64,000 nt of DNA. Origin: Acidimicrobiales bacterium (GTDB taxonomy: Bacteria; Actinomycetota; Acidimicrobiia; Acidimicrobiales; CATQHL01). Location: assembly GCA_963668565.2 (NCBI GenBank), contig CAXXMX010000009.1:9301-73300 (forward strand), written 5' to 3'. Under the pieces are notes generated by a model that was given only the letters and a program-made list of their open reading frames with translations, was not told the DNA's origin and made no database searches. The first letter of the stretch is position 1. Each line of letters starts with the position of its first letter. A program made the translations under genes and the position numbers. Shown here in pieces: positions 26,627-56,247 of this stretch.

Positions 26627-26771
26627 GCGCCAAGCCGCCGAAGCGCCGGCCCGGCCGCTCCAGCGCTCCCCGATCCCAGGCAACTGCTGGTCGGGACCGC
26701 CCTGGGCGGCGACCGGGGCCCGTCGCAGGCGCCGGCGCGGCCGGCCGGATCGCACCCGCCTGTGGCGCGGC

Positions 26772-33108: not shown

Positions 33109-33732
33109 CTACACCATCTCGTTGCTGTGGTGGTGTGGGCAGAACCTGCTGGTCGCCCAGGAGTGCCAGCCCGAGAGTTGGGGATCCTTGACGAGCAGGG
33201 CGGCAGCGCCAATGTTCACTGCGGGATCGAGGTACGTCTCGTCGCTGCGCCCGAACCGCTTCACCATGCGCTCGTGATATTCCGAGCCGATCCACCAGTC
33301 GGAGTTGATCTGCATCAAGCCGAACGAGCCGCGTGCCGGGTCGTCTCGATTCGTGAGGCTGGGGTCGCCGCCGGACTCGTAGGACATGACGCACAACGCC
33401 GTGGCGGCATCGGTCGGGTCGAAGACAGCGCACACGGTGGATGACCAACGCATCACCGTGTCGCGATCGACAATCTCGCTCAGGATCGGCTCTCCTTGCG
33501 GGCAGGCGCCCTCACGGCCACGTGGGGGGCTATCGGGAACCTGAACTGCGAACCAGACGCTGTAGGCCTCGAAGGGAGAGCACCCCAGGAGCCCCAGCGA
33601 CGCACAGAGACCGACCGCGATCGCCGCGACACGCCGGGCGCGCGACGAGGGCGGCCGGCGTGTCGCGGTCTGGCGGGCACCGGCTCGTCTCGCATCGGCA
33701 CGGCGACGGGGGAATCGAAGGGGGAAAAGCAC
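33109..33732 (-). CDS. lysozyme-like / lytic transglycosylase domain lipoprotein
   Basis: Lipobox LGLLGCSP. Catalytic-region pattern SYESGGDPSLTNRD...GSFGLMQINSDWW is typical of the SLT/goose-lysozyme-like fold. Confidence 0.6.
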   Translation of the reverse strand: MLFPLRFPRRRADARRAGARQTATRRPPSSRARRVAAIAVGLCASLGLLGCSPFEAYSVWFAVQVPDSPPRGREGACPQGEPILSEIVDRDTVMRWSSTVCAVFDPTDAATALCVMSYESGGDPSLTNRDDPARGSFGLMQINSDWWIGSEYHERMVKRFGRSDETYLDPAVNIGAAALLVKDPQLSGWHSWATSRFCPHHHSNEMV

Positions 33733-34987: not shown

Positions 34988-35379
34988 CCTCGAAGGCCGG
35001 GTGGTCCTCCAAGAACCGGCTACCGCAGTTGCCGCACACCATCCTGCGCCGCTGCCACACCAACGTCATGCGCCGTCCCGACACCTCCAGGTCCCGGACC
35101 CTCTTGGCGCGGCGGTCGTGCACCCGGTGGCACTTGAACCCGCACTGCGCACAGCGCAGCCGCCTGAACGTGGACTCGACGCTCACCACAAGCGCGCCCG
35201 GGGTGTCCTCGACCACCTCCAACACACGGATCTGCGGCAAGTGCAGCCGAACTGTCATAACATCGCAAGCCATCGGCGCCCTCCTGGATCGTGATCTCTC
35301 AATCACCGATTCCAGCAGGGCCTCGACCCCTACTCAGGGACCCTCAACCACCCACCTCCCCACGTTTCCGCGAAGGCTC
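34988..35379 (-). mobile_element. ISL3-family element remnant: left inverted repeat plus the first 90-107 codons of the transposase (zf-ISL3 region), interrupted by the IS481-like element
   Basis: Minus-strand translation from ATG 35258: MTVRLHLPQIRVLEVVEDTPGALVVSVESTFRRLRCAQCGFKCHRVHDRRAKRVRDLEVSGRRMTLVWQRRRMVCGNCGSRFLEDHPAFEG, the ISL3 N-terminal zinc-finger pattern. The putative IR gagccttcgcggaaacg (complement of 35363-35379) resembles the IR of the second ISL3 at 52605-52619. Confidence 0.6.
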
Positions 35380-38067
35380 GTCAGTTTGGTTGGTCACTGT
35401 GACCGTCACTTCCAGAAACGCGGTGTTTGCCTCGGCATCGGCAGCCTCAACGGTCACCTTGTACACGTTGTCGCCGTCCGAGTCTGACGGCTGCTCGTAG
35501 TCCGGAGGATCGTTGAAGGCAAGTACGCCCGCGTCACTGATGATCAAGACCCCGCTGTCGGCTCCTGACAGGTTCCAGGAGATCGTTCCCCTCTCCGGGT
35601 CGGTGGCTCTGTAGGTGGCCAGCGAGTCGGTGCCGTTCTCCTGGTAGGCGATGCGGTCGCTCCCCGTCATGTCCGGCGTCTCGTTGATGTCGTTGACGGT
35701 GACGGTCACCTCGAGGTAGCCGTAGTTCCGCCCGTCCGAGGCCCGCACCGAGAAGTTGTAGACGTTGTCGCGCCCCGAGTCCGCCGGCGCCTCGTAGTCC
35801 GGCACATTCCTAAACGACAGTTCGCCGCCCTCGCTGATCACGAAATCCCCCGCATCAGAACCCGACAGGCTCCAGCGCGTTATCAACGCAGATGGGTCCT
35901 CAGGATCGGTGGCCGTATAGGTCGCCAAGATCTGGTCCGTGGCCTGGTTCTCGGCGAACGACAGGCTCTGCTGGCCCGCGATCTCCGGCCCCTCGCTCTG
36001 GCCGGTCACCGTCACCGTCACCGCCACGCTGTCGGCGTGGCCGTCATCGTCGGTGGCCTCCACGGTGACCTCATAGACGTTGTCCCGGTCGGCGTCGGTG
36101 GGGTTCTCGAAGTCCGGCGGGCTGGCAAAGGTCAGAACACCCCGCCCGCGGCTATCGGCGGTGATCGTGAAGTCATCCCCGTCAGCTCCCCCCGGCGACC
36201 AACTGATGGCGGCCCGCTCCGGATCGGCAGCGGCGAAGGTGTAGATCGTGGCGGTGCCGTTCTCCCGATAGGTGAAGGAGGTCTTGCTCGTCGTGGTGAT
36301 CGCCAGCGCCTCGTTGACGTCCTCGACGGTGACGGTCACCTCCAGGTAGCCGTAGTTGCGCCCATCCGACGCGCGCACCGAGACGTTGTAGACGTTGTCG
36401 CGCCCCGAGTCCGCCGGCGCCTCGTAGTCCGGCACATTCCTAAACGACAACTCGCCGCCCTCGCTGACCGCGAAATCGCCGGCGTCGCGGCCCGACAAAC
36501 TCCACCGAGAGATGACGGCGCCCGGATCCTCCGGGTCAGTGGCCGTATAGGTCGCCAAGACCCGGTCGGTGGCCTGGTTCTCGGCGAACGACAGGCTCTG
36601 CAGGCCCGCGATCTCCGGCCCCTCATTCACGTCGCTGACCGTGACGGTGACCTCCACGCTGTCGGCGTGGCCGTCATCATCGGTGGCCTCCACGGTGACC
36701 TCATAGACGTTGTCCCCGCCGGCGTCGACCGGGTTCTCGAAGTCCGGCGGGCTGGCAAAGGTCAGAACACCCCGCCCGCGGCTATCGGCGGTGATGGTGA
36801 AGTCATCCCCGTCAGCTCCCCCCGTCGACCAACTGATCGTGCCCCGCTCGGGGTCGGCGGCGCTGAACGTGTAAATCGTGGCCGTGCCGTTCTCCCGATA
36901 CGTGAAGGAGGTCTTGCTCGTCGTGGTGATCGCCAGCGCCTCGTTGACGTCCTCGACGGTGACGGTCACCTCCAGGTAGCCGTAGTTCCGCCCATCCGAC
37001 GCGCGCACCGAGAAGTCATAGACGTTGTCGCGCCCCGAGTCCGCCGGCGCCTCGAAGTCCGGCACATTCCTAAACGACAACTCGCCGCCCTCGCTGACCG
37101 CGAAATCCCCCGCATCAGAACCCGACAAACTCCACCGAGAGATGACCGCGCTCGGGTCCTCGGGATCGGTGGCCGTGTAGGCCGCCAAGATCCGACCCTC
37201 CTCTAGGTTCTCCGCGAACGACAGGCTCTGCAGGCCCGCGATCTCCGGCCCCTCATTCACGTCGCTGACCGTGACGGTGACCTCCACGCTGTCGGCGTGG
37301 CCGTCATCATCGGTGGCCTCCACGGTGACCTCATAGACGTTGTCCCGGTTAGCGTCGGTGGGGTTCTCGAAGTCCGGCGTGCTGGCAAAGGTCAGAACAC
37401 CCCGCCCGCGGCTATCGGCGGTGATCGTGAAGTCATCCCCGTCCGCTCCCCCCGGCGACCAACTGATCGTGCCCCGCTCAGGATCGGCGGCGCTGAAGGT
37501 GTAAATCGTGGCGGTGCCGTTCTCCCGATACGTGAACTCGGTCTTGCTCGTCGTGGTGATCACCAGCGCCTCGTTGACGTCCTCGACGGTGACGGTCACC
37601 TCCAGGTAGCCGTAGTTGCGCCCATCCGACGCGCGCACCGAGAAGTCATAGACGTTGTCGCGCCCCGAGTCCGCCGGCCGCTCGAAGTCCGGCACATTCC
37701 TAAACGACAACTCGCCGCCCTCGCTGATCCGGAAATCCCCCGCATCAGAACCCGACAGACTCCACCGCGAGATGACGGCGCTCGGATCCTCCGGGTCGGT
37801 GGCCGTATAGGTCGCCAAGATCCGGTCGGTGGCCTGGTTCTCCGCGAACGACAGGCTCTGCAGGCCCGAGATCTCCGGTCCCTCGTTCTGCTCAACGACG
37901 GTTACCTCTACCTGTAGCTCGGCGCGGTTGCGTTCGCTGTCGGTGGCCTCCACGGTGACCTCATAGACGTTGTCCCGGTCGGCGTCGGTGGGGCTCTCAA
38001 AGTCCGGCGGGCTGGAGAACGCCAGGACACCCCGCCCGCGGCTATCGGCGGTGATCGGTGAAGTCAT
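35344..38067 (-). CDS. giant cadherin-repeat protein, fragment 5 (C-terminal; the last 12 codons plus stop derive from the ISL3 inverted repeat)
   Basis: 907-aa ORF. Ends ...LEVTVTVTNQTDEP|SRKRGEVGG*, where the break after the inter-domain DEP linker coincides with the ISL3 IR. Confidence 0.75.
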   Translation of the reverse strand: MTSPITADSRGRGVLAFSSPPDFESPTDADRDNVYEVTVEATDSERNRAELQVEVTVVEQNEGPEISGLQSLSFAENQATDRILATYTATDPEDPSAVISRWSLSGSDAGDFRISEGGELSFRNVPDFERPADSGRDNVYDFSVRASDGRNYGYLEVTVTVEDVNEALVITTTSKTEFTYRENGTATIYTFSAADPERGTISWSPGGADGDDFTITADSRGRGVLTFASTPDFENPTDANRDNVYEVTVEATDDDGHADSVEVTVTVSDVNEGPEIAGLQSLSFAENLEEGRILAAYTATDPEDPSAVISRWSLSGSDAGDFAVSEGGELSFRNVPDFEAPADSGRDNVYDFSVRASDGRNYGYLEVTVTVEDVNEALAITTTSKTSFTYRENGTATIYTFSAADPERGTISWSTGGADGDDFTITADSRGRGVLTFASPPDFENPVDAGGDNVYEVTVEATDDDGHADSVEVTVTVSDVNEGPEIAGLQSLSFAENQATDRVLATYTATDPEDPGAVISRWSLSGRDAGDFAVSEGGELSFRNVPDYEAPADSGRDNVYNVSVRASDGRNYGYLEVTVTVEDVNEALAITTTSKTSFTYRENGTATIYTFAAADPERAAISWSPGGADGDDFTITADSRGRGVLTFASPPDFENPTDADRDNVYEVTVEATDDDGHADSVAVTVTVTGQSEGPEIAGQQSLSFAENQATDQILATYTATDPEDPSALITRWSLSGSDAGDFVISEGGELSFRNVPDYEAPADSGRDNVYNFSVRASDGRNYGYLEVTVTVNDINETPDMTGSDRIAYQENGTDSLATYRATDPERGTISWNLSGADSGVLIISDAGVLAFNDPPDYEQPSDSDGDNVYKVTVEAADAEANTAFLEVTVTVTNQTDEPSRKRGEVGG

Positions 38068-38698
38068 CCCCGTCAGCTCCCCCCGGCGACCAACTGATCA
38101 GCCCCCGCTCCGGATCAGCAGCGGCGAAGGTGTAGATCGTGGCGGTGCCGTTCTCCCGATAGGTGAAGGAGGTCCTGCTCGTCGTGGTGATCGCCAGCGT
38201 CTCGTTGACGTCGTTGACGGTGACGGTCACCTCGAGGTAGCCGTAGTTCCGCCCGTCCGAGGCGCGCACCGAGAAGTCATAGACGTTGTCGCGCCCCGAG
38301 TCCGCCGGCCGCTCGAAGTCCGGCACATTCCTAAACGTCAACTCGCCGCCCTGGCTGATCGCGAAATCGCCGCCGTCGCTGCCCGACAGGCTCCACCGCG
38401 AGATGACGGCGCTCGGATCCTCCGGGTCGGTGGCCGTATAGGTCGCCAAGATCCGGTCGGTGGCCTGGTTCTCGGCGAACGACAGGCTCTGCAGGCCCGA
38501 GATCTCCGGTCCCTCGTTCTGCTCAACGACGGTTACCTCTACTTGCAGCTCGGCGCGGTTGCGTTCGCTGTCGGTGGCCTCCACGGTGACCTCATAGACG
38601 TTGTCCCGGTCGGCGTCGGTGGGACTCTCAAAGTCCGGCGGGCTGGCAAAGGTCAGAACACCCCGCCCGCGGCTATCGACGGTGATCGGTGAAGTCAT
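38042..38698 (-). CDS. giant cadherin-repeat protein, fragment 4
   Basis: 218-aa ORF equal to one repeat unit. Ends ...SWSPGGADGDDFTDHRR at the same indel motif that ends fragment 3. Confidence 0.7.
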   Translation of the reverse strand: MTSPITVDSRGRGVLTFASPPDFESPTDADRDNVYEVTVEATDSERNRAELQVEVTVVEQNEGPEISGLQSLSFAENQATDRILATYTATDPEDPSAVISRWSLSGSDGGDFAISQGGELTFRNVPDFERPADSGRDNVYDFSVRASDGRNYGYLEVTVTVNDVNETLAITTTSRTSFTYRENGTATIYTFAAADPERGLISWSPGGADGDDFTDHRR

Positions 38699-41600
38699 CC
38701 CCGTCAGCTCCCCCCGGCGACCAACTGATCAGCCCTTCCTCCGGATCGGTGGCGCTGAAGGTGTAAATCGTGGCCGTGCCGTTCTCCCGATACGTGAAGG
38801 AGGTCCTGCTCGTCGTCGTGATCACCGGCGCCTCGTTGACGTCGTTGACGGTGACGACCACCTCCAGGTAGCCGTAGTTCCGCCCATCCGACGCCCGCAC
38901 CGAGAAGTTGTAGACGTTGTCGCGCCCCGAGTCCGCGGGCCGCTCGAAGTCCGGCACATTCCTAAACGACAACTCGCCGCCCCCGCTGACCGCGAAATCC
39001 CCCGCATCAGAACCCGACAAACTCCACCGAGAGATGACCGCGCCCGGGTCCTCGGGATCGGTCGCCGTGTAGGCCGCCAAGATCCGACCCTCCTCTAGGT
39101 TCTCCGCGAACGACAGGCTCTGCACGCCCGCGATCACCGGACCCTCATTCTGATCAACGACGGTTACCTCTACCTGCAACTCGGCGCGGTTGCCTTCGCT
39201 GTCGCGAGCCACCACGGTGACCTCATAAACGTTGTCCCGGTCAGAGTCCGCAGGGCTCTCAAAGTCTCGCAACGTCTTGAACGTGAGCTTTCCCCTATAG
39301 ATGGCGAAGTCGTCGTCGTCGGGTCCTGACAGCGACCAGCTGATGTCGACCCGCTCGGGGTCGGTGGCGCGGAAGGTGTAAATCGTCGCGGTGCTGCTCT
39401 CCCGATAGGTGAAGGAGGTCCTGCTCGTCGTGGTGATCACCGGCGCCTCGTTGATGTCCTCGACGGTGACGGTCACCTCCAGATAGCCGTAGTTCCGCCC
39501 ATCCGACGCGCGCACCGAGAAGTCATAGACGTTGTCGCGCCCCGAGTCCGCCGGCCGCTCGAAGTCCGGCACGTTCCTAAACGTCAGCTCGCCGCCCCCG
39601 CTGACCGTGAAATCCCCCGCATCAGAACCCGACAGACTCCAGCGCGTAATCGGCGTGCCCGGGTCCTCGGGATCGGTGGCCGAATAGGTCGCCAGGATCC
39701 GGTCGGTGGCCTGGTTCTCGGCGAACGACAGGCTCTGCACGCCCGAAACCTCCGGCCCCTCGTTCTGACCAGTCACCGTGACGGTGACCTCCAGGGTGCC
39801 GGAGTTGAAGGCGTCGTCGCGAGCCTCCACGGTGACCTCATAGACGTTGTCCTGGTCAGCGTCGGTGGGGTTCTCGAAGTCCGGCGGGCTGGAAAAGGTC
39901 AGAACACCCCGCCCGCGGCTATCGACGGTGATGGTGAAGTCATCCCCGTCCGCTCCCCCCGGCGACCAACTGATCGTGCCCCGCTCGGGATCGGCGGCGC
40001 TGAACGTGTAAATCGTCGCGGTGCCGTTCTCCCGATACGTGAAGGAGGTGGTGCCGGTGATCACCGGCGCCTCGTTGACGTCCTCGACGGTGACGGTCAC
40101 CTCCAGATAGCCGTAGTTCCGCCCATCCGACGCCCGCACCGAGAAGTCATAGACGTTGTCGCGCCCCGAGTCCGCCGGCGCCTCGAAGTCCGGCACATTC
40201 CTAAACGACAACTCGCCGCCCCCGCTGATCGCGAAATCGCCGGCGTCGCTGCCCGAGAGGCTCCACCGGGAGATCGAGGCGCCCGGGTCCTCTGGATCGG
40301 TCGCCGTATAGGCCGCCAGGATCCGGTCGGTGGCCTGGTTCTCGGCGAACGACAAGCTCTGCACGCCCGCCACCACCGGCCCCTCATTCACGTCGCTGAC
40401 CGTGACGGTGACCTCCACGCTGTCAGTGAGGCTCTGGTCGTCGGTTACCTCCACGGTGACCTCATAGACGTTGTCCTGGTCAGCGTCGGCGGGGTTCTCG
40501 AAGTCCGGCGGGCTGGAAAAGGTCAGAACACCCCGCCCGCGGCTATCGGCGGTGATCGTGAAGTCATCCCCGTCCGCTCCCCCCGGCGACCAACTGATCG
40601 TGCCCCGCTCGGGGTCGGTGGCGCGGAAGGTGTAAATCGTCGCGGTGCCGTTCTCCCGATAGCTGAAGGAGGTCCTGCTCGTCGTGGTGATCACCGGCGC
40701 CTCGTTGATGTCCTCGACGGTGACGGTCACCTCCAGATAGCCGTAGTTCCGCCCATCCGACGCCCGCACCGAGAAGTCATAGACGTTGTCGCGCCCCGAG
40801 TCCGCCGGCCGCTCGAAGTCCGGCACATTCCTAAACGACAACTCGCCGCCCCCGCTGATCCGGAAATCCCCCGCATCAGAACCCGACAGACTCCAGCGCG
40901 TAATCGGCGTGCCCGGGTCCTCTGGATCGGTGGCCGAATAGGTCGCCAGGATCCGGTCGGTGGCCTGGTTCTCGGCGAACGACAAGCTCTGCACGCCCGC
41001 CACCACCGGCCCCTCATTCACGTCGCTGACCGTGACGGTGACCTCCACGCTGTCAGTGAGGCTCTGGTCGTCGGTTACCTCCACGGTGACCTCATAGACG
41101 TTGTCCCGGTTAGCGTCGGTGGGGTTCTCAAAGTCAGGCGGGCTGGCAAAGGTCAGAACACCCCGCCCGCGGCTATCGGCGGTGATGGTGAAGTCATCCC
41201 CGTCCGCTCCCCCCGGCGACCAACTAATGGCGGCCCCCTCGGGATCGGCGGCGCTGAACGTGTAAATCGTCGCGGTGCCGTTCTCCCGATAGCTGAAGGA
41301 GGTCTTGCTCGTCGTGGTGATCACCGGCGCCTCGTTGACGTCCTCGACGGTGACGGTCACCTCCAGGTAGCCGTAGTTGCGCCCATCCGACGCCCGCACC
41401 GAGAAGTCATAGACGTTGTCGCGCCCCGAGTCCGCCGGCGCCTCGAAGTCCGGCACATTCCTAAACGACAACTCGCCGCCCCCGCTGACCGTGAAATCGC
41501 CCGCATCAGAACCCGACAGACTCCAGCGCGTAATCGGCGTGCCCGGGTCCTCGGGATCGGTGGCCGAATAGGTCGCCAGGATCCGGTCGGTGGCCTGGTT

Positions 41601-41828
41601 CTCGGCGAACGACAAGCTCTGCACGCCCGCCACCACCGGCCCCTCGTTCTGATCAACGACGGTTACCTCTACCTGCAACTCGGCGCGGTTGAACTTCGCT
41701 GTCGCGAGCCACCACGGTGACCTCATAAACGTTGTCCCGGTCAGCGTCGGCGGGGTTCTCAAAGTCCGGCGGGCTCGAAAACGCCAGAACACCCCGCCCG
41801 CGGCTATCGACGGTGACAGCGAAGTCAT
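38673..41828 (-). CDS. giant cadherin-repeat protein, fragment 3
   Basis: 1,051-aa ORF. Authentic frame runs from ...NRAELQVEVTVVDQNEGPVVAG onward, about five units. Confidence 0.75.
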   Translation of the reverse strand: MTSLSPSIAAGGVFWRFRARRTLRTPPTLTGTTFMRSPWWLATAKFNRAELQVEVTVVDQNEGPVVAGVQSLSFAENQATDRILATYSATDPEDPGTPITRWSLSGSDAGDFTVSGGGELSFRNVPDFEAPADSGRDNVYDFSVRASDGRNYGYLEVTVTVEDVNEAPVITTTSKTSFSYRENGTATIYTFSAADPEGAAISWSPGGADGDDFTITADSRGRGVLTFASPPDFENPTDANRDNVYEVTVEVTDDQSLTDSVEVTVTVSDVNEGPVVAGVQSLSFAENQATDRILATYSATDPEDPGTPITRWSLSGSDAGDFRISGGGELSFRNVPDFERPADSGRDNVYDFSVRASDGRNYGYLEVTVTVEDINEAPVITTTSRTSFSYRENGTATIYTFRATDPERGTISWSPGGADGDDFTITADSRGRGVLTFSSPPDFENPADADQDNVYEVTVEVTDDQSLTDSVEVTVTVSDVNEGPVVAGVQSLSFAENQATDRILAAYTATDPEDPGASISRWSLSGSDAGDFAISGGGELSFRNVPDFEAPADSGRDNVYDFSVRASDGRNYGYLEVTVTVEDVNEAPVITGTTSFTYRENGTATIYTFSAADPERGTISWSPGGADGDDFTITVDSRGRGVLTFSSPPDFENPTDADQDNVYEVTVEARDDAFNSGTLEVTVTVTGQNEGPEVSGVQSLSFAENQATDRILATYSATDPEDPGTPITRWSLSGSDAGDFTVSGGGELTFRNVPDFERPADSGRDNVYDFSVRASDGRNYGYLEVTVTVEDINEAPVITTTSRTSFTYRESSTATIYTFRATDPERVDISWSLSGPDDDDFAIYRGKLTFKTLRDFESPADSDRDNVYEVTVVARDSEGNRAELQVEVTVVDQNEGPVIAGVQSLSFAENLEEGRILAAYTATDPEDPGAVISRWSLSGSDAGDFAVSGGGELSFRNVPDFERPADSGRDNVYNFSVRASDGRNYGYLEVVVTVNDVNEAPVITTTSRTSFTYRENGTATIYTFSATDPEEGLISWSPGGADGDDFTDHRR

Positions 41829-42345
41829 CCCCGTCCGCTCCCCCCGGCGACCAACTAATGGCGGCCCCCTCGGGATCGGCGGCGCTGAACGTGTAAATCG
41901 TCGCGGTGCCGTTCTCCCGATACGTGAACGAGGTCTTGCTCGTCGTGGTGATCACCGGCGCCTCGTTGATGTCCTCGACGGTGACGGTCACCTCCAGATA
42001 GCCGTAGTTCCGCCCATCCGACGCCCGCACCGAGAAGTCATAGACGTTGTCGCGCCCCGAGTCCGCCGGCGCCTCGAAGTCCGGCACATTCCTAAACGAC
42101 AACTCGCCGCCCCCGCTGACCGCGAAATCGCCCGCATCAGAACCCGACAAACTCCACCGAGAGATGACCGCGCTCGGATCCTCGGGATCAGTCGCCGCAT
42201 AAGTCGCCAGGATCCGGTCGGTGGCCTGGTTCTCGGCGAACGACAAGCTCTGCACGCCCGCCACCACCGGCCCCTCGTTCTGATCAACGACGGTTACCTC
42301 TACCTGCAACTCGGCGCGGTTGCCTTCGCTGTCGCGAGCCACCAC
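41653..42345 (-). CDS. giant cadherin-repeat protein, fragment 2
   Basis: 230-aa ORF carrying one full 630-bp unit in the authentic repeat frame (DQNEGPVVAGVQSLSFAENQATDRILATY...). Confidence 0.7.
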   Translation of the reverse strand: MVARDSEGNRAELQVEVTVVDQNEGPVVAGVQSLSFAENQATDRILATYAATDPEDPSAVISRWSLSGSDAGDFAVSGGGELSFRNVPDFEAPADSGRDNVYDFSVRASDGRNYGYLEVTVTVEDINEAPVITTTSKTSFTYRENGTATIYTFSAADPEGAAISWSPGGADGDDFAVTVDSRGRGVLAFSSPPDFENPADADRDNVYEVTVVARDSEVQPRRVAGRGNRR

Positions 42346-45300
42346 GGTGACCTCATAAACGTTGTCCCGGTCAGCGTCGGCGGGGTTCTCAAAGTCCGGC
42401 GGGCTGGAAAACGCCAGAACACCCCGCCCGCGGCTATCGACGGTGACAGCGAAGTCATCCCCGTCCGCTCCCCCCGGCGACCAACTGATCGTGCCCCCTC
42501 GGGATCGGCGGCGCTGAACGTGTAAATCGTCGCGGTGCCGTTCTCCCGATAGGTGAAGGAGGTCCTGCTCGTCGTGGTGATCACCGGCGCCTCGTTGAGG
42601 TCCTCGACGGTGACGGTCACCTCCAGATAGCCGTAGTTCCGCCCATCCGACGCCCGCACCGAGAAGTCATAGACGTTGTCGCGCCCCGAGTCCGCCGGCG
42701 CCTCGAAGTCCGGCACATTCCTAAACGACAACTCGCCGCCCCCGCTGACCGTGAAATCGCCCGCATCAGAACCCGACAAACTCCAGCGCGTAATCGGCGT
42801 GCCCGGGTCCTCTGGATCGGTCGCCGAATAGGTCGCCAGGATCCGGTCGGTGGCCTGGTTCTCGGCGAACGACAAGCTCTGCACGCCCGAAACCACCGGC
42901 CCCTCATTCACGTCGCTGACAGTGACGGTGACCTCCCGGGTGCCGGCGTTGAAGGCGTCGTCGCGAGCCTCCACGGTGACCTCATAGACGTTGTCCCGGT
43001 CAGCGTCGGTGGGGTTCTCAAAGTCCGGCGGGCTGGCAAAGGTCAGAACACCCCGCCCGCGGCTATCGACGGTGATGGTGAAGTCATCCCCGTCCGCTCC
43101 CCCCGGCGACCAACTGATCGTGCCCCGCTCGGGATCGGTGGCGCGGAAGGTGTAAATCGTCGCGGTGCCGTTCTCCCGATAGGTGAAGGAGGTCCTGCTC
43201 GTCGTGGTGATCACCGGCGCCTCGTTGATGTCCTCGACGGTGACGGTCACCTCCAGATAGCCGTAGTTCCGCCCATCCGACGCGCGCACCGAGAAGTCAT
43301 AGACGTTGTCGCGCCCCGAGTCCGCCGGCCGCTCGTAGTCCGGCACATTCCTAAACGACAACTCGCCGCCCTCGCTGACCGTGAAATCCCCCGCATCAGA
43401 ACCCGACAAACTCCACCGAGAGATGACCGCGCTCGGATCCTCCGGATCAGTCGCCGTATAGGTCGCCAGGATCCGGTCGGTGGCCTGGTTCTCGGCGAAC
43501 GACAGGCTCTGCACGCCCGAAACCTCCGGCCCCTCGTTCTGACCAGTCACCGTGACGGTGACCTCCAGGGTGCCGGAGTTGAAGGCGTCGTCGCGAGCCT
43601 CCACGGTGACCTCATAGACGTTGTCCCGGTCAGCGTCGGTGGGGTTCTCGAAGTCCGGCGGGCTGGAAAAGGTCAGAACACCCCGCCCGCGGCTATCGAC
43701 GGTGATCGTGAAGTCATCCCCGTCCGCTCCCCCCGGCGACCAACTGATCGTGCCCCGCTCGGGATCGGCGGCGCTGAACGTGTAAATCGTCGCGGTGCCG
43801 TTCTCCCGATACGTGAACGAGGTGGTGCCGGTGACCAGCGGCGCCTCGTTGACGTCCTCGACGGTGACGGTCACCTCCAGATAGCCGTAGTTCCGCCCAT
43901 CCGACGCGCGCACCGAGAAGTCATAGACGTTGTCGCGCCCCGAGTCCGCCGGCGCCTCGAAGTCCGGCACATTCCTAAACGACAACTCGCCGCCCCCGCT
44001 GATCGCGAAATCCCCCGCATCAGAACCCGACAAACTCCACCGAGAGATGACCGCGCCCGGATCCTCCAGATCAGTCGCCGTATAGGCCGCCAGGATCCGG
44101 TCCGTGGCCTGGTTCTCAACGAACGACAAGCTCTGCGAGCCCGAAACCACCGGCCCCTCGTTCTGATCAACGACGGTTACCTCTACCTGCAACTCGGCGC
44201 GGTTGCCTTCGCTGTCGCGAGCCACCACGGTGACCTCATAGACGTTGTCCTGGTCAGCGTCGGTGGGGTTCTCGAAGTCCGGCGGGCTGGAAAACGCCAG
44301 AACACCCCGCCCGCGGCTATCGGCGGTGATCGTGAAGTCATCCCCGTCCGCTCCCCCCGGCGACCAACTGATCGTGCCCCGCTCAGGATCGGCGGCGCTG
44401 AACGTGTAAATCGTCGCGGTGCCGCTCTCCCGATAGCTGAAGGAGGTCCTGCTCGTCGTGGTGATCACCGGCGCCTCGTTGACGTCCTCGACGGTGACGG
44501 TCACCTCCAGATAGCCGTAGTTCCGCCCATCCGACGCCCGCACCGAGAAGTCATAGACGTTGTCGCGCCCCGAGTCCGCCGGCGCCTCGAAATCCGGCAC
44601 ATTCCTAAACGACAACTCGCCGCCCCCGCTGACCGTGAAATCGCCCGCATCAGAACCCGACAAACTCCAGCGCGTAATCGGCGTGCCCGGGTCCTCTGGA
44701 TCGGTCGCCGAATAGGTCGCCAGGATCCGGTCGGTGGCCTGGTTCTCGGCGAACGACAAGCTCTGCACGCCCGCCACCACCGGCCCCTCATTCACGTCGC
44801 TGACCGTGACGGTGACCTCCACGCTGTCAGTGAGGCTCTGGTCGTCGGTGGCCACCACGGTGACCTCATAGACGTTGTCCCGGTCAGCGTCGGCGGGGTT
44901 CTCAAAGTCCGGCGGGCTGGCAAAGGTCAGAACACCCCGCCCGCGGCTATCGACGGTGATCGTGAAGTCATCCCCGTCCGCTCCCCCCGGCGACCAACTG
45001 ATCGTGCCCCCCTCGGGATCGGCGGCGCTGAACGTATAAATCGTCGCGGTGCCGTTCTCCCGATACGTGAACGAGGTGGTGCCGGTGATCACCGGCGCCT
45101 CGTTGACGTCCTCGACGGTGACGGTCACCTCCAGATAGCCGTAGTTGCGCCCATCCGACGCGCGCACCGAGAAGTCATAGACGTTGTCGCGCCCCGAGTC
45201 CGCCGGCGCCTCGAAATCCGGCACATTCCTAAACGACAACTCGCCGCCCCCGCTGACCGTGAAATCCCCCGCATCAGAACCCGACAAACTCCACCGAGAG

Positions 45301-48300
45301 ATGACCGCGCTCGGATCCTCTGGATCGGTCGCCGTATAGGCCGCCAGGATCCGGTCGGTGGCCTGGTTCTCGGCGAACGACAAGCTCTGCACGCCCGCCA
45401 CCACCGGCCCCTCATTCACGTCGCTGACCGTGACGGTGACCTCCACGCTGTCAGTGAGGCTCTGGTCGTCGGTGGCCACCACGGTGACCTCATAGACGTT
45501 GTCCCGGTCAGCGTCGGCGGGGTTCTCAAAGTCCGGCGGGCTGGAAAACGTCAGAACACCCCGCCCGCGGCTATCGACGGTGATCGTGAAGTCATCCCCG
45601 TCCGCTCCCCCCGGCGACCAACTGATCGTGCCCCGCTCGGGATCGGCGGCGCTGAACGTGTAAATCGTCGCGGTGCCGTTCTCCCGATACGTGAACGAGG
45701 TGGTGCCGGTGATCACCGGCACCTCGTTGACGTCCTCGACGGTGACGGTCACCTCCAGGTAGCCGTAGTTCCGCCCATCCGACGCCCGCACCGAGAAGTC
45801 ATAGACGTTGTCGCGCCCCGAGTCCGCCGGCGCCTCGAAATCCGGCACATTCCTAAACGACAACTCGCCGCCCCCGCTGACCGTGAAATCGCCCGCATCA
45901 GAACCCGACAAACTCCACCGAGAGATGACCGCGCTCGGATCCTCGGGATCAGTCGCCGCATAAGTCGCCAAGATCCGGTCGGTGGCCTGGTTCTCAACGA
46001 ACGACAAGCTCTGCGAGCCCGAAACCACCGGCCCCTCATTCACGTCGCTGACCGTGACCACCACGTCCAGGGTGTCTGTGAGGCTCTGGTCGTCGGTGGC
46101 CACCACCGTGAACTCATAGACGTTGTTCCCGCCGGCGTCGGCCGGGCTCTCAAAATCAGGCGGGCTGCGGAAGGTCAACACGCCGCTGGAACTGATCGCG
46201 AAGGCATGGCTGTCGGGGCCCGTGACCATCCAACTGACGGGCCTGCCCTGGGGGTCCCGCGCCCGGAAGGTGTACACGGCGCCCGTTCCGTTCTCCCGGT
46301 ACGGCGACGGGTTGCTCGTGGTCGTGATGGTGGGCTCCTCCGGGCCCGCGGAGTTGGTGACGGTGACCGTCACCTCCAGGGTCGCAAGGTTGGGGCCGTC
46401 GTCTCGGGCCTCCACCGTTACCAGGTAGTCGTTGTCCTGGTTGGCGTCCGCCGGATTCTCAAAGTCGGGGATGTTGACGAAGGTCAACACGCCCGTCTCG
46501 CTGATTTCGAAGTCGTCGCTATCTGTCCACGAGACCGACCAGGTAACAGCGTCGCGCTCGGGGTCCGTGGCGCGGTAGGTGGCCACCGCCCGGACACCGT
46601 TCTCGGGGAACGCCGGAGCTTCGTCACCCGTTATCGTGGGCGCCTCGTTGACGTCACGCACGCTGATCGTGACGTCCAGGGTGCCCCGGAGCCCGCCTTC
46701 CTCGGTGGCGATCACCGTCGCCAGGTACTCGTTGTTGCCGCCGGAGTCCGCCGGTCGCTCGTAGTCGGGCGGGTTCTTGAAGGTGACCACGCCCGCGTCG
46801 CTGATTTCGAAGTCACCCCGGTCCGTCCCGCCGAGGCTCCAGGTGATGTTGGTCGTGGCGCCCTCAGGGTCGTCGGCGGTATAAGAGGCGACGTCGCCGG
46901 TGCCGTTCTCGTCGTAGTCGTCAACGGTGGCGGCCCCGGTGATCACCGGCGGCTCGTCAACGTCGTTCACGGTGACCGTCACGCTGATGGTGTCGTCGAT
47001 CGTCGTGTCCGAGTTGCCGTAGATGTCCTTCCCGTCGTGTACTGACATCGTGAAGGAGTAGCTGTCGCGGGACTCGTGGTCGAGTGCCGCCTTGGTACGC
47101 AACTGGCCGCTCGACGCGACCACGTCAAACAAGGCAGCGTCCGCACCGGAGATCGAGTAGGTGAGCCTGTCGCTGTCCGCATCGGTGGCCGCGACCGGCG
47201 TCCCGATGTTGCGGTTCGCGGGCGTGTTCTCATCCACACTGCGGACACCGTCCTCGCCGGAGGGAAACTCCGGCGGGCTATTGGCGCTCCGGGTAATAGA
47301 AACCGTGGCCCTGTTATTTCCGCCGGCATAGTTGCCGAGTGTGTCTTTGAGCGGGGGATGGGTACTGCGCGGCACGCCGTAGTCGACTCTGAGCTGGTCG
47401 GTCGCCTTGATGTCCGAATACAGCGTCAAAGTCACCACCCTGCCAGCGACGGAGATCGTTCTGATACGGATGATAAGGCGATTCGTTCCGGCGCTCGTAT
47501 ATCGGACCGTGAACCCCCTACCGAACCGAGTGGGCACGGAGTCTTCGTCTAGAGCCTCGTCCCAGGTCAGCGTCACGTGGTTGCCGTTCGCCAACGCGCC
47601 CGCGGAGACCAAGGTCGGGCGAACGGCGTCAACGAGGTGCCCGCTTTGAGCGCCGAGAACGACACGAGCGGGAGCCACACCCTTGGTGGAAGCGTAGCGG
47701 ACCAGGCCCTGGGCGGTTGATATGGCGCCGTCTGGGACGCTGATTCCGACGGTATCGGCCTCGCCTTCGGTCAATGCGTAGCGGAACACCAGCGAGGTCG
47801 TGCCCGAACCGCTGCGGTATGTCGCGTGTCGTGTCTGTCCCCCGATCAGCAGTGCGAGTTCCGGCCTGCCGCTCACCACCACGTTCTCGCCGAAGGTCAC
47901 CGTTGCCTCGATCACGTCCTGTCTGCCGCGCCAGTTGCCCCAGATGTAGGTCATGTCCGTGCCGGGATCTGAGGTGATCGCGACTTGAGTTGTGTCGTTT
48001 CGAACCTCCTGGCCCGAAAAGTCGGAGGCGTTGTTCGTGGCGGAGTCCTTGAGCGGGTTCGCTCCGGACCCGGTCGGCGCCGAGTAGCCGACCGTCACCG
48101 TGTCGCTCGCGTTGACGGCCGGCGCCAATGAGAGCGTGACGACATTGCCTAGGACTGATACTTCGTCGATCCCGCGGCTCACGCCGCCAACGTTCACAGT
48201 GAACGCGGTCGATGCCGGTTCCGAGGATGCATCAAGCGCCTCGTTCCAAGTCAACCGCAGCGTTGCCCTATCAACCGTTGCTGCCGACAGCGTCGGCGCG

Positions 48301-49916
48301 GTCGTGTCGGTCGCGGTCGGTGTTGCCGTTGTCTCTGCTGCTGCGCCGTCACCGTTATCGTTGTAGGCCAGCACTCGAAGCGTGTGACTCTCGTCGTTGG
48401 TCAATCCGCTGATCGTTCGCCGCAGATCTGTGAGGTTCGTGACCAACGCCTCCCTCGAGGAGCTGTAGTCTTGAGTGCCGGATTTCCACTGGACCTTGTA
48501 TCCCGAAATCGGTGATCCGCCGTCGTCGGGCGGCTCCTGCCAGGACACGGCTAGCTTCCCGGCGCCAACGGCGGTGGCCCCCACGTCTGCGGGCGCCTCG
48601 GGGACGCAGCCGCCGTCGTTCCAAGGATTGCGCGTCACGCCGTCTGCGAACGCCGACTCGGTCGCCTTGGAGTCGTCGCAATAGCCGCCGAACGCGTCCC
48701 GCAGCTGGTAGACGACGGCCCTCTGCCTCTCGAGGCCCGAGAGCACCTTCACATCGGCCCAGACTCGTACCAGATCAGGATCCCCGACGGAGTCGTTGTA
48801 GGTATCGGCGAACCAGGACGGCATCTGTCCTGTGGCCGCGCTCCCGAGCACGGCGAGAGCTTGCTCGGTAGCGGTGTCGGCGGCGGAGCATTGCCGCCAA
48901 TAGCGGCTCGGATCCCGTCCCCCGTCCCCGAGAGTGAGAATCAGCAGCCCGTCGGCGTATAACTCAATAGCATTGCAGGCTGATCCAGGTCCCTCTCGAC
49001 CGTCCGGGGAGACCAAGGCAAGGAAGTAGAGATGAGCGATCCCCACCGGAGCGGGCGTCGAGGCCACGTCGTTCACCAGCGTATAGACATGCGCCAGCTC
49101 ATGAATGATCACATCAATCACGTGGGGGTCGAACCTACCGACAATGATCCCCCACCCATCGCAGCGCCACAGGTCCGAATCCACCAGATAGTCCGGTGAT
49201 GTGCACCCACCGCTGTAGCGACCGCCTGCCGCCACGCCAAAATTCACAAAAGCGTCTTGGGCTGTCATGTAGTCCCATGTTTCGCGCAGCCAGGGAAACG
49301 AACTCTCAAGAATCTCGACAACCTCGTTCTCGACGAACTCCCGCGACTGGCCGGGGGTCGACTGCGGCGTTCCCGTCGCCTCCCCAGAGGCGTCGCTGCC
49401 CCCGTTGGCGTTCGCGGCGATGACCCGCACCGTGTACTCGGTGCCGTCAGTCAGCCCCGTGAGGACGGCCTTGTACCGGTCGCCGGCCGAGGTCGACTGC
49501 GCGCTTTCGATGCTCGTCGCCGGATCGCTCGATAGCTGCCGGGACGAGTCGAACTCCTCGCTTCCCGATTTCCACTGGACCTTGAACGACGTGGTCGACG
49601 CGTCCGACGACGACCAGCGCACCTCCAGCTTCTCGCTCTCGACGCTGTAGACCGCCACCGCCGTCGGCGCATCGGGACCCAGAGACTGGGCGAACGCCAC
49701 GGGGCTGATCACCAAGACAGCGACAACGGACCCCAACAACACAAGCGCGAAGACAACACCACCCCACAGCAACTGAGGTGCTTCTGAGTAAATGTCCGTT
49801 TTTGGGGGTTTGATTACGCCGCATTGGGCGGGTGTGTTCATGGCTGGTTTGGTTTGTTGTTGAGGCTTCGCGAAAACGTGGGTTTTGGGTCTGTTGGTGT
49901 CGGTTGGGTGCATCAT
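42300..49916 (-). CDS. giant cadherin-repeat protein, fragment 1 (N-terminal 2,47x residues are in the authentic frame; the tail is out of frame after about 42495)
   Basis: 2,538-aa ORF. Real sequence ends at ...TFSAADPEG and is followed by Arg/Pro-rich frameshift read-through. An alternative start is ATG 49841 (MNTPAQCGV...). Confidence 0.8.
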   Translation of the reverse strand: MMHPTDTNRPKTHVFAKPQQQTKPAMNTPAQCGVIKPPKTDIYSEAPQLLWGGVVFALVLLGSVVAVLVISPVAFAQSLGPDAPTAVAVYSVESEKLEVRWSSSDASTTSFKVQWKSGSEEFDSSRQLSSDPATSIESAQSTSAGDRYKAVLTGLTDGTEYTVRVIAANANGGSDASGEATGTPQSTPGQSREFVENEVVEILESSFPWLRETWDYMTAQDAFVNFGVAAGGRYSGGCTSPDYLVDSDLWRCDGWGIIVGRFDPHVIDVIIHELAHVYTLVNDVASTPAPVGIAHLYFLALVSPDGREGPGSACNAIELYADGLLILTLGDGGRDPSRYWRQCSAADTATEQALAVLGSAATGQMPSWFADTYNDSVGDPDLVRVWADVKVLSGLERQRAVVYQLRDAFGGYCDDSKATESAFADGVTRNPWNDGGCVPEAPADVGATAVGAGKLAVSWQEPPDDGGSPISGYKVQWKSGTQDYSSSREALVTNLTDLRRTISGLTNDESHTLRVLAYNDNGDGAAAETTATPTATDTTAPTLSAATVDRATLRLTWNEALDASSEPASTAFTVNVGGVSRGIDEVSVLGNVVTLSLAPAVNASDTVTVGYSAPTGSGANPLKDSATNNASDFSGQEVRNDTTQVAITSDPGTDMTYIWGNWRGRQDVIEATVTFGENVVVSGRPELALLIGGQTRHATYRSGSGTTSLVFRYALTEGEADTVGISVPDGAISTAQGLVRYASTKGVAPARVVLGAQSGHLVDAVRPTLVSAGALANGNHVTLTWDEALDEDSVPTRFGRGFTVRYTSAGTNRLIIRIRTISVAGRVVTLTLYSDIKATDQLRVDYGVPRSTHPPLKDTLGNYAGGNNRATVSITRSANSPPEFPSGEDGVRSVDENTPANRNIGTPVAATDADSDRLTYSISGADAALFDVVASSGQLRTKAALDHESRDSYSFTMSVHDGKDIYGNSDTTIDDTISVTVTVNDVDEPPVITGAATVDDYDENGTGDVASYTADDPEGATTNITWSLGGTDRGDFEISDAGVVTFKNPPDYERPADSGGNNEYLATVIATEEGGLRGTLDVTISVRDVNEAPTITGDEAPAFPENGVRAVATYRATDPERDAVTWSVSWTDSDDFEISETGVLTFVNIPDFENPADANQDNDYLVTVEARDDGPNLATLEVTVTVTNSAGPEEPTITTTSNPSPYRENGTGAVYTFRARDPQGRPVSWMVTGPDSHAFAISSSGVLTFRSPPDFESPADAGGNNVYEFTVVATDDQSLTDTLDVVVTVSDVNEGPVVSGSQSLSFVENQATDRILATYAATDPEDPSAVISRWSLSGSDAGDFTVSGGGELSFRNVPDFEAPADSGRDNVYDFSVRASDGRNYGYLEVTVTVEDVNEVPVITGTTSFTYRENGTATIYTFSAADPERGTISWSPGGADGDDFTITVDSRGRGVLTFSSPPDFENPADADRDNVYEVTVVATDDQSLTDSVEVTVTVSDVNEGPVVAGVQSLSFAENQATDRILAAYTATDPEDPSAVISRWSLSGSDAGDFTVSGGGELSFRNVPDFEAPADSGRDNVYDFSVRASDGRNYGYLEVTVTVEDVNEAPVITGTTSFTYRENGTATIYTFSAADPEGGTISWSPGGADGDDFTITVDSRGRGVLTFASPPDFENPADADRDNVYEVTVVATDDQSLTDSVEVTVTVSDVNEGPVVAGVQSLSFAENQATDRILATYSATDPEDPGTPITRWSLSGSDAGDFTVSGGGELSFRNVPDFEAPADSGRDNVYDFSVRASDGRNYGYLEVTVTVEDVNEAPVITTTSRTSFSYRESGTATIYTFSAADPERGTISWSPGGADGDDFTITADSRGRGVLAFSSPPDFENPTDADQDNVYEVTVVARDSEGNRAELQVEVTVVDQNEGPVVSGSQSLSFVENQATDRILAAYTATDLEDPGAVISRWSLSGSDAGDFAISGGGELSFRNVPDFEAPADSGRDNVYDFSVRASDGRNYGYLEVTVTVEDVNEAPLVTGTTSFTYRENGTATIYTFSAADPERGTISWSPGGADGDDFTITVDSRGRGVLTFSSPPDFENPTDADRDNVYEVTVEARDDAFNSGTLEVTVTVTGQNEGPEVSGVQSLSFAENQATDRILATYTATDPEDPSAVISRWSLSGSDAGDFTVSEGGELSFRNVPDYERPADSGRDNVYDFSVRASDGRNYGYLEVTVTVEDINEAPVITTTSRTSFTYRENGTATIYTFRATDPERGTISWSPGGADGDDFTITVDSRGRGVLTFASPPDFENPTDADRDNVYEVTVEARDDAFNAGTREVTVTVSDVNEGPVVSGVQSLSFAENQATDRILATYSATDPEDPGTPITRWSLSGSDAGDFTVSGGGELSFRNVPDFEAPADSGRDNVYDFSVRASDGRNYGYLEVTVTVEDLNEAPVITTTSRTSFTYRENGTATIYTFSAADPEGARSVGRRGERTGMTSLSPSIAAGGVFWRFPARRTLRTPPTLTGTTFMRSPWWLATAKATAPSCR

Positions 49917-49919
49917 GTC

Positions 49920-56228: not shown

Positions 56229-56247
56229 AGCGTTCGTAATTACGCGT

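Follow-up and report, generated by a model that had tools for sequence, protein, structure and literature searches.

A gene for a half-megadalton bacterial surface protein with a zinc-protease-like head and 38 cadherin domains

The window analysed here, a stretch of 64,000 nucleotides, contains a real gene for a half-megadalton bacterial surface protein in which 38 cadherin domains lie behind a zinc-protease-like head. It is a true representative of a Chloroflexota (mostly Dehalococcoidia) family whose members are secreted surface proteins of very large size. The explanation that best accounts for the data, and that we consider probable, is that the window holds a copy of such a gene that has been cut by insertion sequences and whose frame breaks are assembly errors.

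Reading frame and domain composition

The composite reading frame lies on the minus strand, as do the other parts of the locus and its flanking elements, and runs from an ATG at 49916 to a stop at 35344-35346. The original prediction placed the locus at 35344-49916 and estimated that it takes about 23% of the window, in agreement with the measured coding region (22.8%). The same prediction described one gene of about 4,850 codons, and this has to be revised: the frame shifts four times here, leaving five consecutive ORF fragments distributed over three frames (stop-to-stop segments 50003-42303, 42666-41656, 41951-38676, 38728-38045 and 38097-35347). When the four 1-nt indels are corrected, 4,856 codons are read with no stop. 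The predicted start is also displaced, because ATG 49916 lies inside an IS110 copy and the N-terminal 18 codons are IS110 sequence. The probable start codon is at 49841-49843, which is the first in-frame ATG beyond IS110 and the start of the gene call for the first fragment (P0362, 2,513 aa). At the other end, the stop and the last ~10 codons are inside an ISL3 end. Since the giant ORF runs into this element (at ~35377), the native C-terminus is missing, together with any anchor it carried, and no remnants of homolog tails were found elsewhere in the window.

HMM parsing with Pfam yielded cadherin, FN3, SWM_repeat and Big assignments, and the domain order first read from the translation is reproduced by matches to fn3 (two), SWM_repeat (two), Cadherin (PF00028), Cadherin_4 and Big_9. 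The sole hydrophobic segment of the giant protein is N-terminal (aa 46-81) and includes a sequence that we take to be a Sec signal peptide with an AxA site (LLWGGVVFALVLLGSVVAVLVISPVAFA, followed by Q; 49686-49772). The first FN3 domain comes next (aa 94-170; 49407-49637); Pfam reported two fn3 stretches and printed coordinates for the second only, and those of the first are taken from a sub-threshold Pur_ac_phosph_N match. The HExxH zincin-like head domain (aa 175-438; 48603-49394) carries HELAH, ELYAD and all six Cys residues of the mature protein, and is followed by the second FN3 domain identified by Pfam (aa 441-529; 48330-48596). The region at 47280-48311 contains two SWM_repeat modules, which are Ig-like and of the SwmB type, with a beta-rich module between them. 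About three SwmB-type modules had been predicted; two are matched by SWM_repeat, and the third is the beta-rich module, which is unassigned. The SWM_repeat profile (PF13753) scored E=5e-25 over 2 stretches and TIGR02059 (swm_rep_I) reached 49.4 bits against a cut-off of 40.1, and these modules make up ~4% of the protein. The giant protein has a pI of 4.05. A search of its whole length found no LPxTG-like motif, which places it outside the sortase-anchored class, and neither a GGxGxD motif nor RTX repeats; Pfam gave no HemolysinCabind match. With no LPXTG motif and no second hydrophobic segment in the protein, the earlier statement that no anchor is left stands.

The head domain carries its HELAH motif at 49089-49103, with the conserved Glu of ELYAD downstream. 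At H98, E99, H102, E144 and D148, conservation among 28 sequences is 90% or more, and a structural model of the head (pLDDT 88.8) places HExxH on a helix at 92-106 and the Glu on a later helix at 142-159. Thus, both sequence and model show the gluzincin motif, HExxH plus a third-ligand Glu on a downstream helix. Pfam assigns no family to the HExxH region, with SprT-like matching at E=0.3 only, and there is no zincin among the PDB sequence matches to the head. The best Foldseek match against the PDB is 3sks, an M3 peptidase (E=0.5, TM ~0.28-0.3), and the weak top matches comprise M3 oligoendopeptidase F, anthrax lethal factor and the putative Zn-peptidase 4l7a. Because the best zincin match has an E value of 0.5, peptidase activity of the head is a putative assignment. 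The HExxH motif has been lost in a few family members (P0120, P0105). The head is the most original element of the protein, belonging to no Pfam family and having no significant structural neighbour.

The cadherin portion opens with the module that best matches PF00028 in Pfam (46950-47279). Three divergent cadherin-like modules (46032-46949) precede a regular array of 17 A+B double units of 615-632 bp each, or 34 modules (35377-46031). The total of 38 modules bears out the predicted composition of one classical module and about 37 further ones. Sixteen of the units are 83-100% identical to the reference unit at the nucleotide level, and the terminal unit is 76% identical. PF00028 matched the first segment alone at E=2.4e-79, and the five fragments scored 262, 35, 173, 42 and 172 bits (cut-off 28.8), with 22 stretches that score on their own. 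One A+B unit, modelled with AlphaFold, reached a pLDDT of 94.1 and shows the seven-strand beta-sandwich of the EC fold in tandem, and the 50 PDB matches listed for it are all cadherin or protocadherin EC pairs, with probability 1.00, E values of about 1e-11 to 1e-9 and ~220 aligned columns that cover both modules. Together, the Pfam HMMs and this model support the predicted cadherin-like fold, and both module types, A and B, fold as cadherin EC pairs in the model. A census of Ca2+-binding motifs (xEx, DxD/DPE, DxE, DxNDN-like linker) counted 36, 38, 38, 37 and 35 of 38 modules. The D(V/I)NE(A/G)P linkers first noticed between modules are likewise recovered, with DxNE in 35 of 38.

Relatives in Chloroflexota

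The N-terminal 900 aa have 315 homologs, the closest of which match at 56-96% identity across more than 90% of the query, and orthologous loci are present in 15 MAGs. Comparison of homologous loci, which had been proposed as a check, revealed that family members have in common a collinear N-terminal head of ~900 aa. In order, the family proteins carry a Sec signal, FN3, the HExxH zincin-like domain, a second FN3, SWM/Ig modules and cadherin domains, the number of which varies, as does the C-terminal end. Dehalococcoidia/Chloroflexota MAGs contain intact relatives of ~3,200-4,200 aa, one of them annotated as "cadherin domain-containing protein". These include P0365, an intact giant of 4,205 aa, and P0363, an intact protein of 4,060 aa whose gene has no IS flanks and lies on a circular contig of 3.57 Mb. 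Intact Chloroflexota relatives have 22-38 cadherin modules in 11-19 double units, and the locus is therefore less unusual than the original prediction implied. The giant-protein family and the general idea are already known, and the locus is a further member of an uncharacterised kind; no experimental study of the Chloroflexota/Dehalococcoidia relatives was found in the literature searched.

Chloroflexota/Dehalococcoidia MAG proteins named 'fibronectin type III domain-containing protein' or 'cadherin domain-containing protein' (P0025, P0365 and P0363 among them) have the same N-terminal architecture with 48-67% identity, and cadherin modules of the A and B types alternate in them as well. The window copy has 17 double units plus four further modules. 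Unlike the intact relatives, it is bracketed by IS elements, broken in frame and devoid of a native C-terminal region, whereas P0363 continues for ~390 aa past its last cadherin. Other relatives end in a TM helix, as in L005, or in an EF-hand-like tail, and a tail of the form 'DxDxNGxID...DYF..LYF' is found in L004, L007, L009, L011, P0016 and P0044. None of the native ends seen in the family (TM helix, EF-hand-like tail, extra beta domains) is present in the window copy. Homology to the closest relative (L017/P0001) starts at 49773 and ends at 46948, with 97% nucleotide identity. The heads of the two proteins agree through the first cadherin domain, and the stalk that follows is completely different.

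Flanking elements, unit number and frame breaks

IS debris had been predicted on both sides of the gene, and we find an ISL3 fragment with an rve_3 ORF on the left and IS110 plus ISL3 on the right. The IS110-family element (49862-51470, ~1.6 kb, with a DEDD transposase ORF at 50013-51230) ends 21 bp upstream of ATG 49841, and copies that are 98-100% identical occur on four other contigs. Next to it lies an ISL3-family element (51471-52621) whose transposase ORF, from 52523 to 51387, is truncated by the IS110 insertion. The left flank (33872-35377) comprises an ISL3 end and an N-terminal transposase fragment (34476-35306), overlapped by the rve_3 integrase ORF (33872-34921). The bracketing is tighter than first stated, as the reading frame passes into IS sequence at either end. 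The elements on the two sides either come from different families or are divergent members of ISL3. A composite transposon carrying the gene was considered and rejected, because the flanks have no mutual nucleotide similarity at E<=1e-8. The window also contains a Type ISP restriction enzyme gene, which is split.

A sister contig, L018, is 99.5% identical to the window over 21 kb, and its gene is open for 1,958 codons and ends in the same ISL3-derived sequence. That gene is called as a single 4,650-aa product, a figure that comes from the gene-call table, with the 5' 2,692 codons lying outside the compared sequence. It is possible, albeit on the unlikely side, that the array in the window is partly a construct of assembly, with ~630-bp units expanded, collapsed or shuffled, and that 38 modules is not the true count; this would be compatible with assembly errors and with a pseudogene alike. 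The 83-100% identity between units is in keeping with such an origin, as is the length of the sister product, 4,650 aa compared to 4,856 here. The two lengths are reconciled by one 624-bp unit fewer and a 6-bp insertion (4,650 = 4,856 + 2 - 208), only if the ATG is shared. Moreover, differences between the window and L018 within the array fall in dense patches (37885-37939, 38016-38059 and 40810-40869) that resemble swaps of unit variants. However, unit order is identical over the 5.9 kb of array common to both assemblies, and a difference in copy number between strains is also biologically plausible. Independent intact relatives have 11-19 A+B units, one of them on a circular HiFi-style contig, and therefore arrays of this size do exist.

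The first frame break, at 42497 in unit 6, is a 1-nt deletion that leaves the run GAG(C/G)GGGGC one G short. The second, at 41693 in unit 7, is an extra base, and the sequence there (GAAGTTCAAC) resembles a hybrid of the unit variants GAAG-GCAAC and GCCT-TCAAC. An extra base is also present at 38687 in unit 12 (ACC-G-ATC) and again at the homologous site in unit 13 (38056). L018 covers the last two breaks and has neither of them, reading ACC GTC at the former site. The extra bases occur at sites that vary between units, and we read them as two variants merged. Because three of the four indels look like such merges, the breaks are most likely consensus errors made during assembly of a near-identical repeat array, rather than mutations of the organism. 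Reciprocal +/-1 differences between the window and L018 assemblies are found in unique DNA too. In many metagenome contigs arrays of this kind are broken into several small ORFs, and in 4 of 13 orthologous loci the array contains frame switches.

We think it rather unlikely that the locus is instead a decaying pseudogene, in which four real frameshifts, IS110 at the 5' end and truncation by ISL3 at the 3' end would be signs that an IS-rich island is losing the gene. The five ORF fragments, the IS sequence reached at both ends and the split of the neighbouring Type ISP gene all fit genuine decay, and the stretch between IS110 and the start codon yielded no sigma-70-like promoter. The frame switches in 4 of 13 orthologous loci could likewise represent real pseudogenisation. 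Against decay, ~2,380 codons past the first break are free of stops once four bases are corrected, and two of the breaks are missing from a 99.5%-identical genome that has one 4,650-aa ORF with the same ISL3-derived end. In addition, the indels resemble merged variants and not slippage, and units past the first break show no loosening of constraint (dN/dS among units 0.38, vs 0.52 upstream). Even if translated, the product of this copy, which lacks its native C-terminus, may be released or non-functional.

Proposed function and likeness to known systems

Judged by its domain content, the giant protein is a putative adhesin. We propose that tandem duplication produced the 17 units of ~630 bp, which later exchanged sequence with one another. 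The protein would be exported by Sec and its signal cleaved after AFA, and Ca2+ bound at the conserved inter-domain motifs would stiffen the acidic cadherin chain into a rod of ~170 nm. Intact family members would be held at the cell by their C-terminal end, through a TM helix in at least one ortholog and through an EF-hand/dockerin-like tail, whose role is assumed, in several. This arrangement would put the disulfide-bonded N-terminal zincin-like head at the distal tip, where it may bind or cleave a partner such as a protein of the host or extracellular matrix. In the window copy, IS110 lies 21 bp upstream of the likely start, and the native C-terminus has given way to an ISL3 end.

Members of the head family form ~540 clusters at 50% identity, and those with known source are mainly from Chloroflexota MAGs. 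A more speculative extension, which we put forward tentatively, is that the head represents an uncatalogued extracellular zincin-like family carried on Ca2+-stiffened cadherin stalks of up to ~170 nm, that it binds or cleaves host or matrix proteins, and that the stalks are exchangeable cassettes. On this reading, the different stalk of the closest relative, the difference of about one unit between near-identical genomes and the IS elements exactly at the gene ends would together point to a symbiosis-relevant surface organelle that diversifies rapidly by modules. Cadherin- and FN3-domain genes have been reported as enriched in sponge-associated MAGs, with FN3 genes especially abundant in Actinobacteriota and Chloroflexota, and a role in attachment was assumed (PMC8163846).

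The protein could alternatively serve to bind and degrade polysaccharides or particles rather than to adhere to cells or a host, in which case the cadherins would be carbohydrate-binding modules and the head would be a hydrolase, but we regard this as improbable. Cadherin domains of Saccharophagus degradans are said to bind carbohydrate. By the account given in PMC8163846, the first bacterial cadherin domains to be characterised came from this polysaccharide degrader (Fraiberg et al. 2010, PMC2812970), and FN3 domains are common in glycoside-hydrolase systems (PMC8163846). However, Pfam detected no glycoside-hydrolase or CBM family in the giant protein, and 38 tandem EC domains with intact Ca2+ linkers are more in keeping with an extender or stalk than with a binding module. 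Finally, surface adhesins are classic phase-variable genes and one break lies within a short G run, but it is most improbable that the breaks are phase-variable switches or programmed ribosomal frameshift sites controlling a surface antigen, given that the run is just 5-6 bases long, the other three sites are outside simple repeats, no tandem short repeat was found, two of the four breaks are missing from the sister genome, and the full product needs all four successive shifts (-1, +1, +1, +1) to be corrected.

Although a single instance that overturns nothing, the locus with its relatives offers an architecture that is concrete and testable: a zincin-like head with disulfide bonds, carried by a very long cadherin rod. 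It also counsels caution in genome mining. In long-read metagenome assemblies, arrays of this kind are frequently broken up by single-base consensus errors and have IS elements at their borders, so that automated annotation lists many small 'cadherin' ORFs or pseudogenes instead of one half-megadalton protein.

Like gluzincin metallopeptidases, the head has an HExxH helix after a small beta-sheet and a Glu on a later helix, but neither its sequence nor its structure significantly matches any catalogued peptidase family. The long cadherins of metazoans (cadherin-23, protocadherin-15, FAT-type) have in common with the giant protein tandem EC folds and conserved Ca2+-binding linker motifs, and EC pairs of cadherin-23 and protocadherins are the best structural matches of the A+B unit among the 50 listed. 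Identity to animal EC domains is 19-25%. Some bacterial orthologs (L005) also have the type-I topology with a C-terminal TM helix. In contrast, the giant protein has neither the TM helix nor the cytoplasmic domain of metazoan cadherins, and thus lacks the single-pass TM segment and cytoplasmic tail after the EC array that characterise a classical cadherin receptor; its FN3/zincin-like/SWM head has no counterpart in them. SwmB is a giant cell-surface protein needed for swimming by marine Synechococcus, and we take it to be the source of Pfam SWM_repeat and TIGR02059. The giant protein contains two such SWM_repeat/swm_rep_I modules and is likewise very large, acidic, repetitive and secreted, and its lineage is probably marine, but the SWM repeats are a small part of it, the bulk is cadherin, and no link to motility is known. 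Giant RTX adhesins of Gram-negative bacteria such as LapA, SiiE and MpIBP have a long Ca2+-stiffened Ig-like extender with functional domains at one end. The lineage that carries the giant protein is probably Chloroflexota and not a Gram-negative proteobacterium. The RTX adhesins also differ in having RTX nonapeptide repeats and a T1SS-type C-terminus where the giant protein has an N-terminal Sec signal, and in building the extender from BIg repeats instead of cadherin repeats, yet the extender design principle is common to both.

Reading frame and repeat array of the giant gene

The coding signal of the giant gene runs on the minus strand from an ATG at 49916 to a stop codon at 35344-35346, and the ORF listing bears out these outer limits of the original prediction. 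A single gene of ~4,850 codons had been proposed, but the locus is divided into five successive minus-strand ORFs at 42300-49916 (2,538 aa), 41653-42345, 38673-41828, 38042-38698 and 35344-38067. When the three minus-strand frames were mapped from stop to stop, the protein-like reading passed through frames 1, 0, 1, 2 and 0 in turn.

Autocorrelation revealed a repeat period of 630 bp. Tandem Repeats Finder reported no repeats in the gene, because this period exceeds its 500-bp limit, and units were delimited by autocorrelation, BLAST and MAFFT instead. BLAST of one unit against the gene identified an array of 17 units of 615-632 bp; identity to the reference unit is 83-100% for 16 of them and 76% for the terminal one. 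When aligned with MAFFT, the units differ in length by in-frame steps of 6, 12 and 15 bp and contain exactly four single-base events, all given here for the minus strand. A G is missing from a G run in unit 6 (~42497), one base is extra in unit 7 (~41693), and units 12 (~38687) and 13 (~38056) carry the same extra base at homologous positions. Conceptual repair, with one base restored and three removed, yields a 14,571-nt CDS of 4,856 codons with no internal stops. The predicted length therefore fits the repaired frame and no ORF present in the window, because it is reached only after these four changes. The initial observation was largely right, and its interpretation partly so.

Origin of the frame breaks

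We consider assembly error the probable cause of the four frame breaks, based on comparison with a sister assembly, the sequence at the break sites and the behavior of related arrays. Contig_26 of ERZ28668957 (2.24 Mb), reached through a neighboring gene, aligns to window positions 20024-41213 with 99.5% identity, and there too the neighbors are MFS, rve_3 and an ISL3 fragment. For the sister gene on this contig, the record gives a single 4,650-residue product, which was not among the matches of a homology search with a 2,703-aa query. The comparison covered 5.9 kb of the gene, over which the sister frame is open for 1,958 codons (the other 2,692 codons lie outside it), and within this segment the sister has neither the extra base at ~38056 nor that at ~38687. 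At both sites the sister reads ACC GTC ACC and most other units read ACC ATC ACC, while the window reads ACC G ATC ACC, which is what a consensus caller produces from merged G- and A-variant reads. The sequence at the unit-7 insertion mixes two unit variants, and the base lost from unit 6 lies in a G run.

Unique DNA is also affected. In an alignment of window 26600-27300 with positions 6577-7330 of the sister sequence L018, one C is missing from the window at ~26703 and one G from the sister at ~27090. Because these reciprocal single-base indels break the same small membrane-protein gene differently in each assembly, the sequences indicate indel noise in both. Of 13 orthologous loci, 4 have a frame switch within the array, and metagenome assemblies contain several fragments of such cadherin arrays per contig. 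Finally, dN/dS among the units is 0.39 overall and is not higher downstream of the first break. True pseudogenisation would also account for a broken frame, but the two breaks missing from the sister, the merged-variant sites, the indels in unique DNA, the dN/dS values and the ortholog arrays all favor assembly error, and we regard gene decay as the less likely explanation. Phase variation or programmed frameshifting was rejected, because none of the sites is slippery and the sister assembly lacks two of them.

The sister length equals 4,856 + 2 - 208 residues, corresponding, if both genes start at the same ATG, to one 624-bp unit fewer and a 6-bp insertion. On that condition, the number of units therefore differs between the two assemblies, through either real copy-number variation or assembly.

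A Type ISP restriction-modification gene nearby (52907-56324, minus strand) is also split, which fits artefact and pseudogenisation alike. Positions 1-255 of the Type_ISP_C profile match the ORF at 53304-56324 and positions 267-341 match the ORF at 52907-53563, both on the minus strand; the 1,006-aa Type ISP ORF contains methylase and specificity domains only. Beside this gene is a low-GC island (56000-58300; 54% compared to 66-72% around it) with an AAA_15/AAA_21 (AbiEii-like) ATPase gene at 56727-58241 (minus strand), which looks like an acquired defence islet.

Insertion sequences at both ends of the gene

The right flank contains an IS110-family element (51470-49862); four other contigs carry copies of it with 98-100% identity. 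Because these copies match through 49862, the ATG at 49916, originally taken as the start, sits in IS110 sequence. The next in-frame ATG (49841) is 21 bp past the IS110 end and is the start in P0362 (2,513 aa, on a contig of 74,466 bp), the gene call that is the counterpart of the window's first fragment. The probable start codon lies in an 88-bp A/C-rich stretch (49774-49861) that separates the IS110 from the region homologous to L017, the closest relative; this stretch could be native to the gene's 5' end or left over from the disrupted ISL3 element. A promoter scan upstream of the start, which covered sigma-70-like consensus sites, found none, a result that carries little weight for this lineage.

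The IS110 insertion interrupts an ISL3 transposase gene. On at least three other contigs (L019-L022; window counterpart 49862-52621), a copy of this IS110 with 98-100% identity likewise directly follows an ISL3 transposase gene. Recurrence beside ISL3 copies that differ in sequence suggests that this IS110 may target ISL3 elements.

At the left end of the gene, similarity to other ISL3 copies begins at ~35377, and thus the stop codon and the ~10 codons before it (PSRKRGEVGG) are IS-derived. The claim that no anchor remains was right: the anchor is missing because of the IS insertion, with the ISL3 end in place of the C-terminus. No displaced native C-terminus or remnant of an ortholog tail was found elsewhere in the 64-kb window. 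Orthologs end in several ways: with a transmembrane helix (L005), with an EF-hand/dockerin-like tail, "DxDxNGxID...DYF..LYF" (several members), with ~390 aa of extra beta domains (P0363), or directly after the last cadherin (P0365). A conserved tail of ~40 aa, "D.D.NG.I...E.I.A..DYF.G.I.KEE.I.V..LYF", with a sub-threshold EF-hand signature, recurs in many members (L004, L007, L009, L011; P0016, P0029, P0044, P0047) and is possibly a dockerin-like anchoring module. A composite transposon carrying the gene was ruled out because the IS copies on the two flanks show no relationship at the nucleotide level. Just past the left IS debris, a small ORF (33109-33732, minus strand) has a weak lysozyme/SLT-like transglycosylase signature.

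Architecture, relatives and proposed working of the protein

Pfam agrees with the predicted domain order (fn3, SWM_repeat, Cadherin). Two fn3 domains (the second at aa 441-529) and two SWM_repeat domains, also matched by TIGR02059, were detected; Cadherin (PF00028) scores far over threshold on all five fragments, and alternate modules match Cadherin_4 and Big_9. Cutting the repaired protein at its DxNE linkers gives 38 cadherin-like modules: one best classical match (aa 880-989), three divergent modules and 34 alternating A and B modules. Depending on the motif, 35-38 of the 38 carry cadherin-type sites for Ca2+ binding. One A+B double unit was modeled with AlphaFold (pLDDT 94.1), using 20 units of the window and its relatives. 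The 50 PDB matches that Foldseek listed for this model are all EC pairs, from either protocadherins or cadherin-23 (probability 1.00), and align across both modules, so the modeling confirms a cadherin fold for both types. The repaired protein (516 kDa) is acidic, with a pI of 4.05. Its single hydrophobic segment, at aa 46-81, is N-terminal and ends AFA|Q, and all six cysteines of the mature chain are within the HExxH domain, where three disulfides are predicted.

This HExxH domain (aa 175-438, ~264 aa), which we call the head, has no family in Pfam or NCBIfam and no sequence relative in the PDB. Alignment across 28 diverse homologs showed no or almost no variation at H98, E99, H102, E144, D148 and the six cysteines. 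The AlphaFold model (pLDDT 88.8, pTM 0.88) has a three-stranded sheet followed by the HExxH helix, with the conserved Glu on a later helix, an arrangement that in the model is the gluzincin layout. Foldseek found no significant neighbor among PDB and viral models; the best weak matches are zincins at E ≥ 0.5 (M3 peptidase, anthrax lethal factor and a putative Zn-peptidase). A head profile matched 543 clusters among 1.84 billion representative proteins, 474 of them below 1e-10. We read the head as an uncatalogued, zincin-like extracellular domain that may be catalytic; it is the most original part of the protein. One homolog, P0121 (6,353 aa), has two heads thousands of residues apart with FN3, SWM and Ig-like repeats between them; it lacks the A/B array, and its tail also appears out of frame.

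Near-identical and more distant intact relatives of the locus exist. Similarity to L017/P0001 (97% nucleotide identity; L017 4394-7225) starts at 49773, in the hydrophobic core of the signal peptide, and stops at 46948, where the first cadherin domain is complete; from there on, L017 has a different stalk of Cadherin_4/Big_9 type. Because this recombination breakpoint falls at a domain boundary, the alignment suggests that stalks may be swapped cassette-like on a conserved head. Relatives are mostly Dehalococcoidia MAGs; intact members have 3,200-4,200 aa and about 13-19 A+B units, and P0363, which no IS elements flank, is on a circular contig of 3.57 Mb. The family is already public under generic names, known but uncharacterised. 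The 5' part of the gene matched no sequence in a plasmid search. One isolate name, IRC3_bin_22, may hint at a sponge. Sponge-associated MAGs are enriched in cadherin and FN3 genes, the latter particularly abundant in Actinobacteriota and Chloroflexota, and attachment is their proposed role (PMC8163846).

We propose that the giant protein would be exported by Sec. Cadherin domains are ~4.5 nm long, and Ca2+ would stiffen the 38-domain chain into a rod of ~170 nm. Intact family members would be held at the cell by the C-terminal end, and the zincin-like head, at the distal end, would bind or cleave a partner. Because its anchor end is missing, the product of the window copy, if made, would be released or non-functional.

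This working principle would be like that of RTX adhesins and long animal cadherins, which are also Ca2+-stiffened giant adhesins. The repaired protein differs from RTX/T1SS adhesins and from sortase-anchored proteins in having no RTX or LPXTG motif anywhere in its sequence, and from classical transmembrane cadherins in that its only hydrophobic segment is the N-terminal one.
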